Made by a program: the position numbers and the translations under genes
Notes under the pieces: generated by a model
What the model was told of the DNA's origin: nothing
The model's input: only the letters and a program-made list of their open reading frames with translations
Database searches by the model: none
NCBI GenBank assembly: GCA_012744445.1
Contig: JAAYBZ010000169.1
Coordinates: forward strand, 24,946 to 88,945
Length of the DNA stretch: 64,000 nt
Source: Myxococcales bacterium
GTDB taxonomy: Bacteria; Myxococcota_A; Polyangia; Polyangiales; Houyiibacteriaceae
Direction: 5' to 3'
Shown here: positions 1 to 32,222 of the stretch, one piece after another
Layout of the letters: each line of letters starts with the position of its first letter
How positions within the stretch are numbered: position 1 is the first letter of the stretch

Positions 1-394
<394 letters not shown>

Positions 395-397
395 CGC

Positions 398-1090
398 TCA
401 GCCCTCTCCCGCGCTCTCGCGCGCACTCTCGAGCGCGGCCTCTTCGGCCTCGGCGATCGCGCTGTCGCTCAACATGCGGCGCTGGCCCTGTTGCACGGCG
501 AGCGAAGGCGAGACCTGGAGGTCCTTGCCGGCGAGGCGGCTCTCCCAGTCGACGCGCGCGAAGGGCTGGCCCTCCTCGATGCCGAAGGGCGGGAGCTTCT
601 CGATGCCCTCGACCTCGCGGTACTCCACGATGGGCTGCGCGCGATCGATCGGATAGTCCTTGCGAAGCGGGTGCCCCTCGAACTCTTCGTAGAGGAGGAT
701 GCGCCGAAGGTCGGGGTGCCCCTCGAAGCGGATGCCGAACATGTCGTAGCACTCGCGCTCGGCCCAGTTGGCGCCGGCGTAGATCGACGAGACCGAGGCG
801 AGCGGCTCGCCGTCGCGGAGGCGCGTCCGCACGCGGATCCGCGCGCGCTTCTCGATGGAGCGGAGGAAGATCAGCACGTCGAAGCGAGGCCCCTCGCGCT
901 CGGGGAAGTCGACCGCGGTGAGATCGCCGAAGTGGTTCATCGCCGTCTCGGAGTCGTCGCGGAGGAACGTCACGACCTCGACCCAGTCGGAGGGCGCGAC
1001 CACCACCTCGTCGTCGCCTCGAAACGCCGAGGTCTCGAGGATGCGCTCCCCGAAGACCTCTCGAAGCCGCTCAACGACCGCTTGGCTCAC
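398..1090 (-). CDS. nuoC: NADH-quinone oxidoreductase subunit C
   Basis: The C-terminal 230 aa of ORF 398..1540(-) carry NuoC/30-kDa signatures (VVAPSDWVEVVTFLRDD, ANWAERECYDMFGIRFEGHPDLRRILL). Start set to GTG 1090, which overlaps the nuoB stop (GTGA, 1087-1090). The upstream 150 ORF codons are Arg-rich read-through across nuoB in another frame. Confidence 0.9.
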   Translation of the reverse strand: MSQAVVERLREVFGERILETSAFRGDDEVVVAPSDWVEVVTFLRDDSETAMNHFGDLTAVDFPEREGPRFDVLIFLRSIEKRARIRVRTRLRDGEPLASVSSIYAGANWAERECYDMFGIRFEGHPDLRRILLYEEFEGHPLRKDYPIDRAQPIVEYREVEGIEKLPPFGIEEGQPFARVDWESRLAGKDLQVSPSLAVQQGQRRMLSDSAIAEAEEAALESARESAGEG

Positions 1091-28210: not shown

Positions 28211-29026
28211 ATGAGGTACTCGATCCTGGGGATGGGCCGATCACTCGGCCTCGATGCTTGTCTTTTCCTTGCTTGTCTCCTCGCGATCTCCGCGAGCGGA
28301 TGCTCCACGACACTCCCCTCACCACCGGGGCGGATGCTCCACCTCACGACGCCCAAGAGCGTCGGCAAGGGTCGGGGCGAGGTCACGGCGGCCTTCGGCA
28401 CCGCGCACTCCGGGGGATTCTTCGAAGAAGACCTCGGCGTGATGGGTGGTGAGGTCCACGGGCGCTATGGGCTCAGCGAGCGGACCGACATCGGGCTCTC
28501 GGCGTTCGCCGCGGGGCTTCGAGGGGACGAAGACGTGCTCCTCGTCTCCCACCACCGCGGGATCTATGCCGCACGTCTCTCCCTCCACCACGAGCTCGTC
28601 CCGCGTTTCGTGGCCCTCCAGGTGGGCTTCGCCGGGGGCGGATCGGCGGCGGGCGGCTTCGTGAGCCCCGACGCGGGGATCACCCTCGGCTACGAGAACC
28701 CGCACCTCGTCCCGTACGCGTACGGCTCGTTCTACTTCAGCCAGCCCATCGCCGAGACCACGCTCGACATGAGCACCGAAGACTCACCGAACGATCTACG
28801 GACGCCGTATCCCTCCTTCGGCCCCCGGGCCGGCCTGGGTCTGCGGGTGCCCATCGGTCCGCGCGTCGATCCACACAGCTCCCTCCTCTTGGAGTTGGGC
28901 GGCACGTGGATGTACGGCGACGATCCCGCCGAAGAGGAAGGGCTCGACGGGCAGCGCGCCTTCCTCCAGTTCGGCCTGGCCTATCGGCTCCACCTGGGCC
29001 GCAAGGCCCGCGCGCCCGCCGACTGA
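28211..29026 (+). CDS. hypothetical lipoprotein (possible small beta-barrel)
   Basis: Lipobox LLAISASGC. Gly/aromatic-rich alternating strands follow (GEVTAAFGTAHSGGFF, GEVHGRYGLS, GIYAARLSLHHE, ALQVGFAGGG). No family recognised. Confidence 0.6.
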   Translation: MRYSILGMGRSLGLDACLFLACLLAISASGCSTTLPSPPGRMLHLTTPKSVGKGRGEVTAAFGTAHSGGFFEEDLGVMGGEVHGRYGLSERTDIGLSAFAAGLRGDEDVLLVSHHRGIYAARLSLHHELVPRFVALQVGFAGGGSAAGGFVSPDAGITLGYENPHLVPYAYGSFYFSQPIAETTLDMSTEDSPNDLRTPYPSFGPRAGLGLRVPIGPRVDPHSSLLLELGGTWMYGDDPAEEEGLDGQRAFLQFGLAYRLHLGRKARAPAD

Positions 29027-29077
29027 GGCGCGTGCCTGCGGCTCGACGGCGGCTCCATTCTTCGTACAAACAGGCGA

Positions 29078-29872
29078 ATGCCCCTCTTCGACTCGCACTG
29101 CCACCTCGACGACCCGCGGCTCGCCTCGTCCCTCGACGAGGTGATCGCCCGCGCCGGAGAAGCAGACGTCCGCCGCATGACCGCGATCGGCTACGTGCGG
29201 TCCCTCGAGAACATCCGCGCGGCCATCGACATCGCCGAGGCCTACCCCGATCGCGTGTTCTCCACGCTGGGGGTCCATCCCCACGAGGCTTCGCTCTACG
29301 ACGACACGCTCGAGCAGGCGATGGAGGCGCTCGCCAGCCACCGCTCGGTCGTGGCGATCGGCGAGATCGGCCTCGACTACTACTACGACCACAGCCCCCG
29401 CGAGGTGCAGAGGGAGGTCTTCCGCCGACAGATCGCCCTCGCCCGCCGCCTGAAGCAGCCGATCGTCATCCACACCCGCGACGCGGCCGAGGACACGCTC
29501 GCGATCCTCCGCGAGGAACGGGCCCACGACGTCGGCGGGATCATCCATTGTTTCAGCGAGGATGCCGATTTCGCCAAGGCCGCCCTCGATCTCGGGTTCG
29601 TGGCGAGCTTCAGCGGGATCGTGACGTTCAAGAACGCCAAAGCCGTGCAGGAAGCGGCCCGCGTGCAGCCGCTCACCGATCTCCTGATCGAGACGGATGC
29701 CCCCTATCTCGCGCCCGTTCCCCACCGGGGACGTACCAACGAGCCCGCTTTCGTGTATCATGTCGCCCACGCGATCGCGGCGCTCCGCGGCATATCGCTG
29801 GAAGAGGTCGTCGAGGCCTCCTGGGAGAACGCCCACCGGGTCTTCCGTCTCCCACTTCCCCAAATCACTTGA
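29078..29872 (+). CDS. tatD: TatD-family metal-dependent hydrolase
   Basis: MPLFDSHCHLDD, GVHPHEA, AIGEIGLDYYY, VIHTRDA, GIIHCFS, LIETDAPYLAP: the complete TatD motif set. Confidence 0.92.
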   Translation: MPLFDSHCHLDDPRLASSLDEVIARAGEADVRRMTAIGYVRSLENIRAAIDIAEAYPDRVFSTLGVHPHEASLYDDTLEQAMEALASHRSVVAIGEIGLDYYYDHSPREVQREVFRRQIALARRLKQPIVIHTRDAAEDTLAILREERAHDVGGIIHCFSEDADFAKAALDLGFVASFSGIVTFKNAKAVQEAARVQPLTDLLIETDAPYLAPVPHRGRTNEPAFVYHVAHAIAALRGISLEEVVEASWENAHRVFRLPLPQIT

Positions 29873-29896
29873 CGAGCCCTAGGCTCGACGTATCCT
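29869..29896 (+). promoter_or_regulatory. candidate sigma-70-type promoter for the L3-rlmE pair
   Basis: TTGACG (29869-29874, overlapping the tatD stop), a 16-nt spacer, then TATCCT (29891-29896). The spacer holds the palindrome AGCC-CTA-GGCT. GGAGGA (29919-29924) precedes GTG 29929. Confidence 0.4.
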
Positions 29897-29928
29897 TCGC
29901 CCCCCTTCTTCCGTCCTCGGAGGACGTC

Positions 29929-30594
29929 GTGAATCAGAATTCCGGCCTCATCGGAACCAAGCTCGGTAATACCCAAATCTTCACGGACGACGGTGAGGTC
30001 GTCCGCGTCACCGCGATCCAGGCCGGCCCCTGCGTGGTCGTCGGCAAGCGCACCCCCGAGAAGCACGGCTATTCGGCCGTCCAGATCGGCTTCGGGAAGG
30101 CTCGCGAGAAGAACGTCTCCAAGCCGGAGGCGGGCTTCTACAAGAAGGCCGGCGTCGAGGCTCCGCGGGTCGTTCGCGAGTTCCGTCTCCCCGAGGAGGA
30201 GGTCGCCAAGCTCGAGGTCGGTCAGACCCTCAGCCCCGCCGACATCTTCACCGAGGGCCAGTTCGTCGACGTGACGGGCGTGACCAAGGGCCGCGGCTTC
30301 ACGGGCGTCATGAAGCGCCACAACTTCGCCGGCGCCGCGACCAAAACGCACGGTACGCACGAGTACAAGCGCCACGGTGGTTCGATCGGTCAGAACATGA
30401 CCCCGGGCCGCACGTTCAAGGGCATGGGCATGCCCGGCCACTACGGCAACGAGCGCGTCACGGTGCAGAACCTCCGCGTCGTGAAGGTCCTCGCCGAGGA
30501 GAACGTCGTCCTCGTCGAGGGCGCCGTCCCGGGTCCGCGCAACGGCGTGGTCACCGTCCGCGGCGCGGTCAAGAAGACCAAGAAGGCTGGCTGA
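29929..30594 (+). CDS. rplC: 50S ribosomal protein L3 (divergent, not in an S10 operon)
   Basis: From GTG 29929: GLIGTKLGNTQIFTDDGEVVRVTAIQAGP..., KPEAGFYKKAGVEAPRVVREFR, VDVTGVTKGRGFTGVMKRHNF, GSIGQNMTPGRTFKG, GNERVTVQNLRVVKV, LVEGAVPGPRNG. This is the L3 fold and order of motifs, but several near-invariant residues differ. Confidence 0.85.
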   Translation: MNQNSGLIGTKLGNTQIFTDDGEVVRVTAIQAGPCVVVGKRTPEKHGYSAVQIGFGKAREKNVSKPEAGFYKKAGVEAPRVVREFRLPEEEVAKLEVGQTLSPADIFTEGQFVDVTGVTKGRGFTGVMKRHNFAGAATKTHGTHEYKRHGGSIGQNMTPGRTFKGMGMPGHYGNERVTVQNLRVVKVLAEENVVLVEGAVPGPRNGVVTVRGAVKKTKKAG

Positions 30595-30601
30595 GTAAGC
30601 T

Positions 30602-31270
30602 CTGTCTCGTTCCCGCGTCCATCGACGGCAGCACCAAGGGCGGAGGCTCGAAGACGAGTTCGGCCGCCGCGCCAAGCGCGAAGGCTACCCCGCCCGCTCC
30701 GTCTACAAGCTCGAAGAGATCGACCAGAAGGTCCGGCTCTTCCGACGCGGCCAAAGGGTCCTCGATCTGGGCGCGAGCCCGGGGTCGTGGACCCTTTATG
30801 CTGCCGAGCGCGTGGGCCGCGAGGGCAAGGTCCGCGGCCTCGACATCAAGCCGCACGCGGCCGCCCTGCCCCCCAACGCCACCATCGAGGTCAAGGACGT
30901 CCGCACCGTGACGGCCGAGGAGCTCGGCGGCGATCGGGCCTTCGAGGTCGTGATGAGCGACATGGCGCCCGCCACGATCGGCCACCGCGAGACCGACATG
31001 GCGCGGAGCTACGAGCTCTTCATGGTCGCGCTCGATCTCGCGCTCCGCGTCCTCGCGCCGGGCGGGCACTTCGTGGGCAAGATCTTCCAGGGCGGCGAGT
31101 TCCAGAACGCGCACGCCACGCTCAAGAAGCACTTCACCACCGTGAAGGTCGTGCGGCCCAAGGCCACGCGCGAGATGAGCTACGAGGTCTTCCTCGTGGG
31201 GCTCGGCCGGCGCGAGCCCAAGGCGGCCGCGCCCACGGACGCGCCACCCACGAGCGAGCCCTCGGCCTAG
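30602..31270 (+). CDS. rlmE: 23S rRNA (uridine2552-2'-O)-methyltransferase RlmE/FtsJ; start codon non-canonical or unresolved
   Basis: The frame opens after TAA 30596-30598. It encodes RLEDEFGRRAKREGYPARSVYKLEEIDQKVRLFRRGQRVLDLGASPGSWTLYAAE (SAM motif I) upstream of the track's GTG 30812, then VVMSDMAP, GGHFVGKIFQG, KVVRPKATR. There is no ATG/GTG/TTG between 30599 and 30811. CTG 30602 is the only near-cognate codon that keeps the whole domain. Confidence 0.8.
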   Translation: MSRSRVHRRQHQGRRLEDEFGRRAKREGYPARSVYKLEEIDQKVRLFRRGQRVLDLGASPGSWTLYAAERVGREGKVRGLDIKPHAAALPPNATIEVKDVRTVTAEELGGDRAFEVVMSDMAPATIGHRETDMARSYELFMVALDLALRVLAPGGHFVGKIFQGGEFQNAHATLKKHFTTVKVVRPKATREMSYEVFLVGLGRREPKAAAPTDAPPTSEPSA

Positions 31271-31271
31271 C

Positions 31272-32222
31272 TCACCGGGATTCGGCGAGGCCGCGGCGGG
31301 CACGCTCGGCGATGGCCGGATCGTCGCGCTGCGTGGCGAGCTCCGTGAAGATCGCCTTCGCGGCGGCCTTCTCGCCCACGCGGAGGTGGATCACCCCGCG
31401 GAGGTAGCGGAGCGCGAGATCGCCCGGATAGGCGCGGAGGGCCTCGTCGGCGACCACCGCCGCCCGTCCGTAGGCCTTGCCGGCCACGAGGGCGAGCACG
31501 TGCTCTCCGGCGAGCGAGGGCGTGTCGCCGAGCTCACGGGCGCGCTCGAAGGCCATCGCGGCATCCTCGCTCTTGCCGAGGCGAAGGAGCGCCCCCGCCG
31601 CCACGGCGAGGATCGCCTTCTGATCGCCGGCGAGCGAGACGGCGCGGCGGAGCTCGGCGATCGCCTCTTCGGGTGCGTCCACCAGCGCAAGGCCCAGGCG
31701 CAGGCGCGGGAGCGGGTTCTTCGGATCGAGGCGCACGGCCTCGCGGTAGGCAGAGGCGGCGGCGCGCGCGTCCCCCCGGGCCTCGAGGACGAGCCCTCGA
31801 CCGAAGTGCGCCTCGGCGAGCTGAGGCTCGATCTCGAGCGCCCGCTCGAAGGCGGAGAGCGCTTCCTCGTCGGCCTGTCGATCGAGGAGGACCGAGCCGA
31901 GGTTCGACCAAGCGCGCGCCATGTTCGGCTCGGCCTCGACGAGCTCGCGGAGCAGCCGCTCGGCGTGGGCGCCGTCCCCCGAGAGATCGTAGGCGAGCGC
32001 GAGGTGGAGCTTCGCCCGCGGGTCGCGCGGATCGTCGCGGAGGGCTCGCTCGAGGAGACGCTTGGCCTCGTCGAGGCGACCTTCTGCGAGCGCTCGCTCG
32101 CCTTCGTCGCGGAGCGTGGCCTCGTCTTCCGGGATCTCCACCTCGGGCGTCGAAGGCCGCGGCGCAGAGCCGCCACACGCCGCGAGGGCGAGCGCCAGTG
32201 CGAACCCCCAATGATGCTTCAT
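31272..32222 (-). CDS. TPR-repeat lipoprotein
   Basis: From ATG 32222: MKHHWGFALALALAACGG (lipobox), then ~7 TPR units (e.g. AWSNLGSVLLDRQADEEALSAFERALEIEPQLAEAHFGRGLVL). The upstream 101 ORF codons are an artefactual extension. Confidence 0.75.
   Translation of the reverse strand: MKHHWGFALALALAACGGSAPRPSTPEVEIPEDEATLRDEGERALAEGRLDEAKRLLERALRDDPRDPRAKLHLALAYDLSGDGAHAERLLRELVEAEPNMARAWSNLGSVLLDRQADEEALSAFERALEIEPQLAEAHFGRGLVLEARGDARAAASAYREAVRLDPKNPLPRLRLGLALVDAPEEAIAELRRAVSLAGDQKAILAVAAGALLRLGKSEDAAMAFERARELGDTPSLAGEHVLALVAGKAYGRAAVVADEALRAYPGDLALRYLRGVIHLRVGEKAAAKAIFTELATQRDDPAIAERARRGLAESR

Follow-up and report, generated by a model that had tools for sequence, protein, structure and literature searches.

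The stand-alone ribosomal protein L3 gene of a Myxococcota lineage is most likely its relocated, ordinary rplC and is paired with rlmE

We examined a gene for ribosomal protein L3 (rplC) that lies by itself between tatD and rlmE in a 64,000-nt stretch of DNA from a Myxococcales bacterium (contig JAAYBZ010000169.1 of assembly GCA_012744445.1; hereafter, the window). In most bacteria, rplC lies between rpsJ and rplD in the S10 operon. An initial annotation had proposed that this L3 and RlmE form a dedicated module for ribosome specialisation or, alternatively, that this is the lineage's only rplC, in a new location. Our results favour the alternative. We consider it very probable that the gene is an ordinary ortholog of rplC, and most likely the only one; that rplC is outside the S10 operon throughout the phylum; and that in this clade it shares an operon with rlmE, whose translation would be coupled to that of L3 at a weak start codon.

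S10 operons of Myxococcota without rplC

If the L3 gene in the window were an extra copy, then another rplC should be present in the S10 operon. Three comparisons suggest that rplC has most likely left this operon across the phylum Myxococcota and that L3 is encoded by a stand-alone gene there.

First, in a scan for L3 across species representatives (one genome per species, with 600 candidate stretches examined), all 19 of the Myxococcota-like L3 loci among the matches listed are stand-alone, with no genes for S10, L4, or L2 in the flanks that we fetched (up to 10 kb). These 19 loci are labelled as Polyangiales, Kofleriaceae, Bradymonadales, "Myxococcales", or "Deltaproteobacteria". Of about 60 L3 loci from other phyla, nearly all have the order S10-L3-L4-L2. 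The stand-alone L3s group together as a single clade of a neighbour-joining tree, except for L010 and L035. (Labels of this kind denote loci that we retrieved for comparison, either L3 loci or S10-L4 contigs.) Among the matches listed from the 600 candidate stretches, no assembly had two matches to L3.

Second, we scanned metagenomes for the S10 motif HKR with the L4 motif KGTGRAR 281-341 nt further on, a spacing that is too short to hold an L3 gene. At least 120 contigs have this pattern, and 119 of the 120 listed have a genuine rpsJ-rplD(-rplB) arrangement without rplC. Most of the full-length S10 proteins among the listed matches (103/109) are at least 75% identical to a single type of S10, whose homologs have source names of Myxococcales, Myxococcaceae, or Cystobacter. 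Clusters named Polyangiaceae and Kofleriaceae account for other subtypes of S10 in this set, and the neighbouring L4 proteins fall into clusters that are named Archangium gephyra, Myxococcaceae, and Myxococcota.

Third, for three of these S10 proteins, we obtained gene-called contexts, and 24 of 24 have S10-L4-L23-L2 without L3. These contexts read (S12-S7-)fusA-(tuf-)S10-L4-L23-L2-S19-L22-S3-L16-L29-S17-L14-L24-L5-S8, and the gap between the S10 and L4 genes is just 2-19 nt. So, as in E. coli and most other bacteria, the Myxococcota keep tuf-rpsJ-rplD-rplW-rplB-rpsS-rplV-rpsC-rplP-rpmC-rpsQ and then the spc genes in the usual order. Unlike the rpsJ-rplC-rplD-rplW-rplB of those bacteria, the operon has no rplC, and 2-19 nt lie between rpsJ and rplD instead.

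Overall, these comparisons suggest that the gene in the window is most likely the lineage's sole rplC, relocated and otherwise ordinary, and not an extra copy. The initial annotation had suggested that if there were no other rplC, and if orthologs from related genomes had the same substitutions at the same location, then this would be an ordinary L3 and not a paralog. That is essentially what we found: the S10 operons lack rplC, and the orthologs share both the substitutions (described below) and the location between tatD and rlmE. (In line with a single copy, published work on 40 Myxococcales genomes has relied on RplC as a housekeeping marker; PMC7310880; PMC4765838.) In the literature that we searched, we found no paper about the absence of rplC from the S10 operons of Myxococcota or about its location in these bacteria. 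Its absence is visible in public annotations, and it is a fact about gene order, not a new kind of system.

Several points weigh against this conclusion. That the window's own genome has a single copy of rplC is something that we infer from other assemblies and contigs. That no assembly matched L3 twice is weak evidence, as the scan covered 600 candidate stretches only. The taxonomic labels on the S10-L4 side are depositors' names that are attached to members of the clusters. Finally, none of the S10-L4 contigs could be linked to a tatD-L3-rlmE locus from the same assembly: there is no overlap between the assemblies on the L3 side (GCA_039028875, GCA_964640175, GCA_028284955, ERZ25039514, and ERZ25072999) and those on the S10 side (GCA_936411095, GCA_038231075, GCA_005879535, GCA_035910535, GCA_040755835, and several ERZ and JGI samples).

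One contig that is labelled as an "uncultured Myxococcales bacterium" (L019, CAYYZO010000106.1) has the canonical order S10-L3-L4-L2. We considered it as a potential S10 operon from the Polyangiales and rejected it, as its S19 is 93% identical to proteins that are named as Candidatus Binatia. L019 is probably not from the Myxococcota and its label is probably wrong.

We also noticed variation around rpsJ and rplC in other lineages. In L135 (Ga0209536_100149961, with S10 at 1255-1545 on the minus strand), rpsJ-rplD lacks rplC, and its S10 belongs to a cluster that is named Planctomycetota, with one member named Vicinamibacteria. Five more of the listed matches (L110, L121, L145, L154, and L161) have an S10 that is distant from the Myxococcota type. 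Independent exits of rplC from the S10 operon may thus have occurred in other lineages. (In Planctopirus, or L050, the order of the S10 operon is canonical.) In four loci from the Acidimicrobiia or Actinomycetota (L021, L022, L032, and L065), about 3-6 kb of other DNA lies between rpsJ and rplC, and rplC-rplD-rplB are together. In these loci, the same junction of the operon is broken, but in a different way.

The gene most likely encodes an ordinary L3 with lineage-specific substitutions

By every sequence test that we applied, the gene in the window encodes a member of the uL3 family. It matches NCBIfam's equivalog model for bacterial L3 (L3_bact, TIGR03625) over the entire profile (positions 1-202 of 202) at 262 bits, well above the cutoff of 142.9, and it matches Pfam's PF00297 at 63 bits (the cutoff is 22). 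More than 120 database clusters match it at 67-100% identity, and several of these have source names indicating L3 of Polyangiales or Myxococcota. It is about 50% identical to the L3s of other phyla, which is a normal level for orthologs from unrelated phyla.

The initial annotation reported that the motifs of the L3 fold are kept, and we agree: both the extended-loop motif GGSIGQNMTPG and the C-terminal HYGNERVTVQNL are present. Like other bacterial uL3 proteins (TIGR03625/PF00297), it has the GGSIG-x3-TPG segment of the loop and the GNERVTVQNL motif, and G144, G147, P152, G163, and G166 are invariant in every group that we compared. It differs from other bacterial uL3s in its location, as it is not between rpsJ and rplD but stands alone with its own predicted promoter, and in having Asn for Met11 and Arg for Pro23.

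To put these residues in context, we compared L3s from three groups: the window's clade (126 members), other stand-alone L3s that are Myxococcota-like (15), and 63 others (61 from other phyla plus those of E. coli and B. subtilis, nearly all of them in an S10-operon context). Met11, in the GMT motif, is present in all 63 of the others and in 14 of the 15 other Myxococcota, and it is replaced by Asn in 114 of the 126 clade members. Pro23, in the PVTV motif, is also present in 63/63, and it is Arg in 123/126 clade members. Val26 is Ala in 108/126. These are real, fixed, and lineage-specific changes at positions in the N-terminal region that are otherwise universal. (The stand-alone L3s of other Myxococcota-like lineages keep Met11 and, mostly, Pro23.) So, of the substitutions that the initial annotation described as being at nearly invariant positions, GMT to GNT and PVTV to RVTA stand, but the other two do not. 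Gln150, of GQNQTPG, is present in only 4 of the 63 canonical L3s; Ala or Ser is usual at this position, and Met is found in the clade. KGKKMAG is a highly variable segment in which Met159 and Pro162 are both often seen, and only the window's Gly160 is rare.

Codon usage also supports the view that this is an ordinary rplC. The preference of the L3 gene for C at the ends of four-fold degenerate codons is the strongest of the 55 genes in the window that we compared (0.77, versus 0.47-0.74 for the others), and GGT accounts for 25% of its glycine codons, versus a background of 9%. This strong bias gives only indirect support to the predicted incorporation of this L3 into the 50S subunit.

With these results in hand, the specialised-ribosome module can be weighed. 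It would have a second, divergent L3 that is expressed with RlmE under certain conditions and that replaces the L3 of the S10 operon. The replacement of Met11 and Pro23, which are invariant in the 63 other L3s, would fit this proposal, as would the gene's own predicted promoter and a partner, RlmE, that also acts at the peptidyl-transferase centre. But there is no canonical copy to replace, given the 24 contexts and the 119 listed contigs in which the S10 operon lacks rplC, and the rplC-free S10 subtypes include ones named Polyangiaceae and Kofleriaceae. The two substitutions are fixed in 114-123 of the 126 clade members, so they are traits of the lineage and not of a paralog. The codon bias of L3 (the strongest in the window) and the lack of any assembly with two L3s among the matches listed also argue against it. 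We consider this proposal to be largely refuted and very unlikely.

The known systems of ribosomal protein paralogs, such as the zinc-dependent and zinc-independent pairs of L31, L33, L36, S14, and S18, or the S4 paralogs (PMC3087516), resemble this locus only in that a gene with unusual residues lies outside of the usual operon. Those systems have two copies per genome, whereas here we found no second copy of L3, and the usual operon is without the gene. Because the defining second copy is missing from where it should be, the L3-rlmE unit is not such a system.

A conserved candidate promoter upstream of L3 and rlmE

The features of the locus are listed in Table 1. As the initial annotation stated, the L3 gene is alone between tatD and rlmE, which is borne out by its full-length match to TIGR03625 and by the profile matches of its neighbours. 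It also stated that the window has no other ribosomal protein genes. We found no genes for S10, L4, or L2 near the L3 gene or elsewhere in the window, and no ribosomal proteins among 20 further predicted genes that we scanned, which included all 16 of the small ones (119-245 amino acids). The convergent gene with TPR repeats, which is also next to rlmE in L001-L004, forms the 3' boundary of a two-gene L3-rlmE unit.

Table 1. Features of the L3-rlmE locus, in positions of the window.
Feature	Position	Strand	Comments
tatD/ychF-family hydrolase	29078-29872	+	TIGR00010, 292 bits; PF01026, 295 bits; upstream context, outside the operon
Candidate sigma-70-type promoter	29869-29896	+	-35 TTGACG at 29869-29874; 16-nt spacer; -10 TATCCT at 29891-29896
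Shine-Dalgarno sequence GGAGGA	29919-29924	+	4 nt 5' of the GTG of L3; read directly from the sequence
rplC (uL3), 221 amino acids	29929-30594	+	GTG start, TGA stop; TIGR03625 and PF00297
L3-rlmE junction	30592-30604	+	TGA 30592-30594 (stop of L3), TAA 30596-30598, GCT, CTG 30602-30604
In-frame stop TAA ahead of rlmE	30596-30598	+	Closes the rlmE frame on its 5' side; the frame is then open across 30599-31270
rlmE (ftsJ/rrmJ family), 222 amino acids if CTG 30602 is the start	30602-31270	+	PF01728, TIGR00438
Gene with TPR repeats, convergent	31272-32222	-	Matches several TPR families in Pfam; ends 1 nt past rlmE

The L3 gene seems to have its own promoter and ribosome-binding site, as the initial annotation proposed. 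The motif TTGACG-N16-TATCCT is the sole promoter-like match in positions 28900-31500, while shuffled sequence gives 0.1 matches on average. Its hexamers match the consensus at 9 of 12 positions, and a G+C-rich discriminator (tcgcccccc) comes right after the -10 hexamer. (The -35 hexamer overlaps the stop codon of tatD, which is TGA at 29870-29872.) In nine other loci (L219, L001, L006, L007, L008, L222, L223, L227, and L228), TTGAC(G/T)-N16-TAT(C/T)(C/T)T is found at the same place, and L009 and L010 have near variants. The motif is missing from L226 and L011, or two of the 13 upstream regions that we examined. The sequence on either side of the motif has diverged among these relatives, and the retention of the motif amid diverged flanks is good comparative evidence that this predicted promoter is real. 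Similarly, the orthologs of L3 have GGGGGAG or GGAG at the same Shine-Dalgarno offset.

The pairing of L3 with rlmE recurs in related genomes, which was one of the checks that the initial annotation had suggested. The order metG-HEAT-tatD-L3-rlmE is found in L001, L007, L219, L222, L227, and L228, and in part in L006. This order, with the TPR gene and glnD convergent to it, recurs in relatives whose L3s are 70-77% identical, including on the 1.9-Mb contig ERZ25039514:contig_43659 and in a Polyangiales metagenome-assembled genome (MAG). It is also present in CP070650.1 (a 2.78-Mb MAG record that was deposited as a chromosome), where the match to metG is partial. L3 is followed by rlmE in a MAG from the Kofleriaceae (L010) and in an unplaced Myxococcales MAG (L011) as well. 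The pairing is seen only in the window's clade, L010, and L011; the other Myxococcota-like stand-alone L3s have different neighbours. Within the clade, orthologs have the same substitutions in L3 at the same tatD-L3-rlmE location.

Some of the other stand-alone L3s have conserved neighbours of their own (L012, L015, L023, and L048; L017, L062, and L074; L014 and L016). In one such group, secreted or unknown proteins are encoded upstream and a gene similar to IMP dehydrogenase is nearby; in another, a TPR gene is downstream. In L011, a gene that looks like L19 from its sequence alone (99-458, minus strand) precedes the stand-alone L3 by about 950 nt, and about 600 nt separate L3 from rlmE.

Two other points concern the window. 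Between the HEAT-repeat gene and tatD lies an open reading frame of 271 amino acids (28211-29026, plus strand) with a lipoprotein-like N-terminus and no match in Pfam. It is present in the four assemblies with 100% identity and missing from that position in L001, L219, L222, L227, and L228. We also considered whether the leader, or any other part of the L3-rlmE unit, contains a known structured RNA and rejected this: with Rfam's gathering thresholds, the only match in the 64 kb is a complete class A bacterial RNase P RNA elsewhere (RF00010; 44652-45025, minus strand; 317.7 bits across model positions 1-367 of 367).

RlmE retains the catalytic residues

The product of rlmE has a complete FtsJ domain (PF01728, 153 bits, profile positions 1-181 of 181). 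Among proteins with solved structures, its best relative is FtsJ from E. coli (PDB:1EIZ; E = 6e-31), and K38, D124, K164, and E199 are each paired with an identical residue. In motif I for binding S-adenosylmethionine (SAM), DLGASPGSW aligns with DLGAAPGGW of E. coli FtsJ. Like E. coli RlmE (FtsJ/RrmJ, the enzyme that forms Um2552) and human MRM2, then, it has the full domain, the K-D-K-E tetrad, and the SAM motif, and we identify it as a methyltransferase of the RlmE/MRM2 family whose catalytic residues are intact.

The score of 157 bits against TIGR00438, which is below the equivalog cutoff of 300, counts against a more specific assignment. (The score against NF008390, 143 bits, is also below its cutoff of 269.) Because of the score, we describe its activity as a 23S rRNA U2552 2'-O-methyltransferase as probable only. 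Besides this low score, it differs from E. coli RlmE in that its gene follows rplC (in E. coli, rlmE is located upstream of ftsH) and that its start codon is apparently CUG.

rlmE probably begins at a CTG just past the stop codon of L3

The initial annotation's reading of rlmE needs to be revised at its 5' end: the frame has no ATG, GTG, or TTG before the SAM-binding motif. The first is GTG 30812, which is 71 codons past the opening of the frame. Automatic gene calls begin there and give a protein of just 152 amino acids (or 172 in L001 and 155 in L227). The stretch before GTG 30812 includes the catalytic Lys38 and DLGASPGSW, so the 152-residue product would lack both Lys38 and SAM motif I. 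The short products called in L001 and L227 would be without SAM motif I as well.

Several observations indicate translation of the stretch upstream of GTG 30812. One is its alignment to the N-terminus of E. coli FtsJ. Between the CTG and GTG 30812 (70 codons), the comparison to L219 (the closest relative that we examined for this junction) shows 27 synonymous and just 11 non-synonymous differences. And a sequencing error is excluded because the sequence is identical in four independent assemblies.

The only near-cognate start codon in this stretch is CTG 30602-30604, which is 7 nt past the stop codon of L3 and aligns, codon for codon, with the starts of related loci. The homologous codon is CTG, 0-1 nt past the stop of L3, in L001, L006, L007, L008, L222, and L227. 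It is GTG in L219 (23 nt past the stop) and in L228 (where it overlaps the stop as GTGA), TTG in L223 (2 nt past), and ATG in L226 (23 nt past). Counting the window, that makes seven loci with CTG, two with GTG, one with TTG, and one with ATG. In L010, from the Kofleriaceae, rlmE starts with a GTG about 40 nt past the stop of L3 and has a normal Shine-Dalgarno sequence. In the relatives, GAGG(G), which resembles a Shine-Dalgarno sequence, lies 4-6 nt 5' of the CTG, within the last codons of L3. These alignments suggest that rlmE starts at CTG 30602 and that CUG serves as the initiator.

Two points count against a CUG start: the Shine-Dalgarno-like sequence before the window's CTG is poor (GAG-N6), and initiation at CUG is rare in bacteria. 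(As an aside, this genome also seldom uses CTG within genes. Across all predicted genes in the window, leucine is encoded by CTC 83% of the time and by CTG 11% of the time.)

Another explanation is that rlmE is decaying or truncated, so that the CTG is what remains of a lost GTG start, and either no protein is made or only the 152-residue fragment from GTG 30812. This would account for the 71 codons without a canonical start, the automatic calls, the GTG in L219 where the window has CTG, and the score below the cutoff for TIGR00438. However, the 70 upstream codons seem to be under purifying selection, given the excess of synonymous differences. All four of the catalytic residues are intact, and the short form would lack one of them as well as SAM motif I. 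Also, CTG is found at the same codon in six other loci, which differ from each other at many synonymous sites. We think that decay is quite unlikely.

Alternatively, readthrough of the stop codon of L3 could yield an L3-RlmE fusion protein. Just one stop codon (TAA or TAG) lies between L3 and an in-frame rlmE in L001, L006, L007, L222, and L227, as readthrough would require. This in-frame arrangement results simply from having the CTG right behind the stop. L3 and rlmE occupy different frames in the window and in L008, and the window has a further stop, TAA 30596-30598, that closes the frame of rlmE. Therefore, readthrough cannot be the mechanism across the clade. Furthermore, L219, L223, L226, and L228 have ordinary, separate starts. 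(We also considered a fusion in the window via frameshifting and rejected it, as a +1 shift would run into TAA 30596-30598 and a -1 shift would give the wrong frame.) A fusion protein seems extremely unlikely.

Instead of a fusion or a decaying gene, we favour coupling of rlmE to L3 by termination and reinitiation via the weak start codon, which is the most economical reading of the junction. The distance from the upstream stop to the downstream start is 7 nt in the window and from -4 to 8 nt in 9 of the 12 lineages. According to PMC10666635, this type of coupling requires a very short intercistronic distance. In this respect, L3-rlmE resembles the serial gene pairs with termination-reinitiation coupling (PMC10666635; PMC2268962), in that its genes are very close or overlap. 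It differs from them in its downstream start, which in 7 of the 12 related loci is the rare CUG instead of AUG or GUG.

A proposed explanation for the locus

We propose that rplC moved out of the S10 operon of the Myxococcota, which left tuf-rpsJ-rplD-rplW-rplB, and into a stand-alone site. In the Polyangiales-like clade of the window, this site is between tatD and rlmE, and L3 would be co-transcribed with rlmE from its own conserved promoter of the sigma-70 type, with a G+C-rich discriminator. Ribosomes that have just terminated on L3 would reinitiate 0-24 nt downstream at the weak start of rlmE (CUG, in the window). The outcome would be a small and fixed amount of the methyltransferase, suitable for a catalyst, per many copies of L3.

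A stronger version of this explanation is that L3-RlmE is a deliberately coupled unit, with a conserved CUG (or GUG or UUG) that sets a low ratio of RlmE to L3; that Asn11 and Arg23 reflect co-evolution of L3, either with the 23S rRNA or with assembly around the peptidyl-transferase centre; and that L3 has been freed from the co-regulation of the S10 operon. In the literature that we searched, we found no description of deliberate coupling of L3 and RlmE, of co-evolution of these residues, or of an escape of L3 from co-regulation. We view this version as tentative and, on balance, doubtful.

In any case, a ribosomal gene that looked odd appears to be ordinary: most likely, it is the lineage's single L3, in the kind of place where the entire phylum Myxococcota keeps rplC. 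The clean removal of rplC from the operon across a phylum bears on how the stoichiometry of ribosomal proteins is kept without co-transcription, and also on the use of S10-operon synteny as a marker. Because its start is apparently CTG, the rlmE of this clade would be systematically mis-annotated as a fragment of 152-172 amino acids, which affects the functional calls for these metagenome-assembled genomes. The value of these findings is that they close the question of a paralog, flag the annotation of rlmE, and point to a natural case of reinitiation at CUG. The recurrence of CTG, GTG, or TTG directly past the stop codon of L3 would make this clade a clean natural case for studying reinitiation at codons other than AUG.

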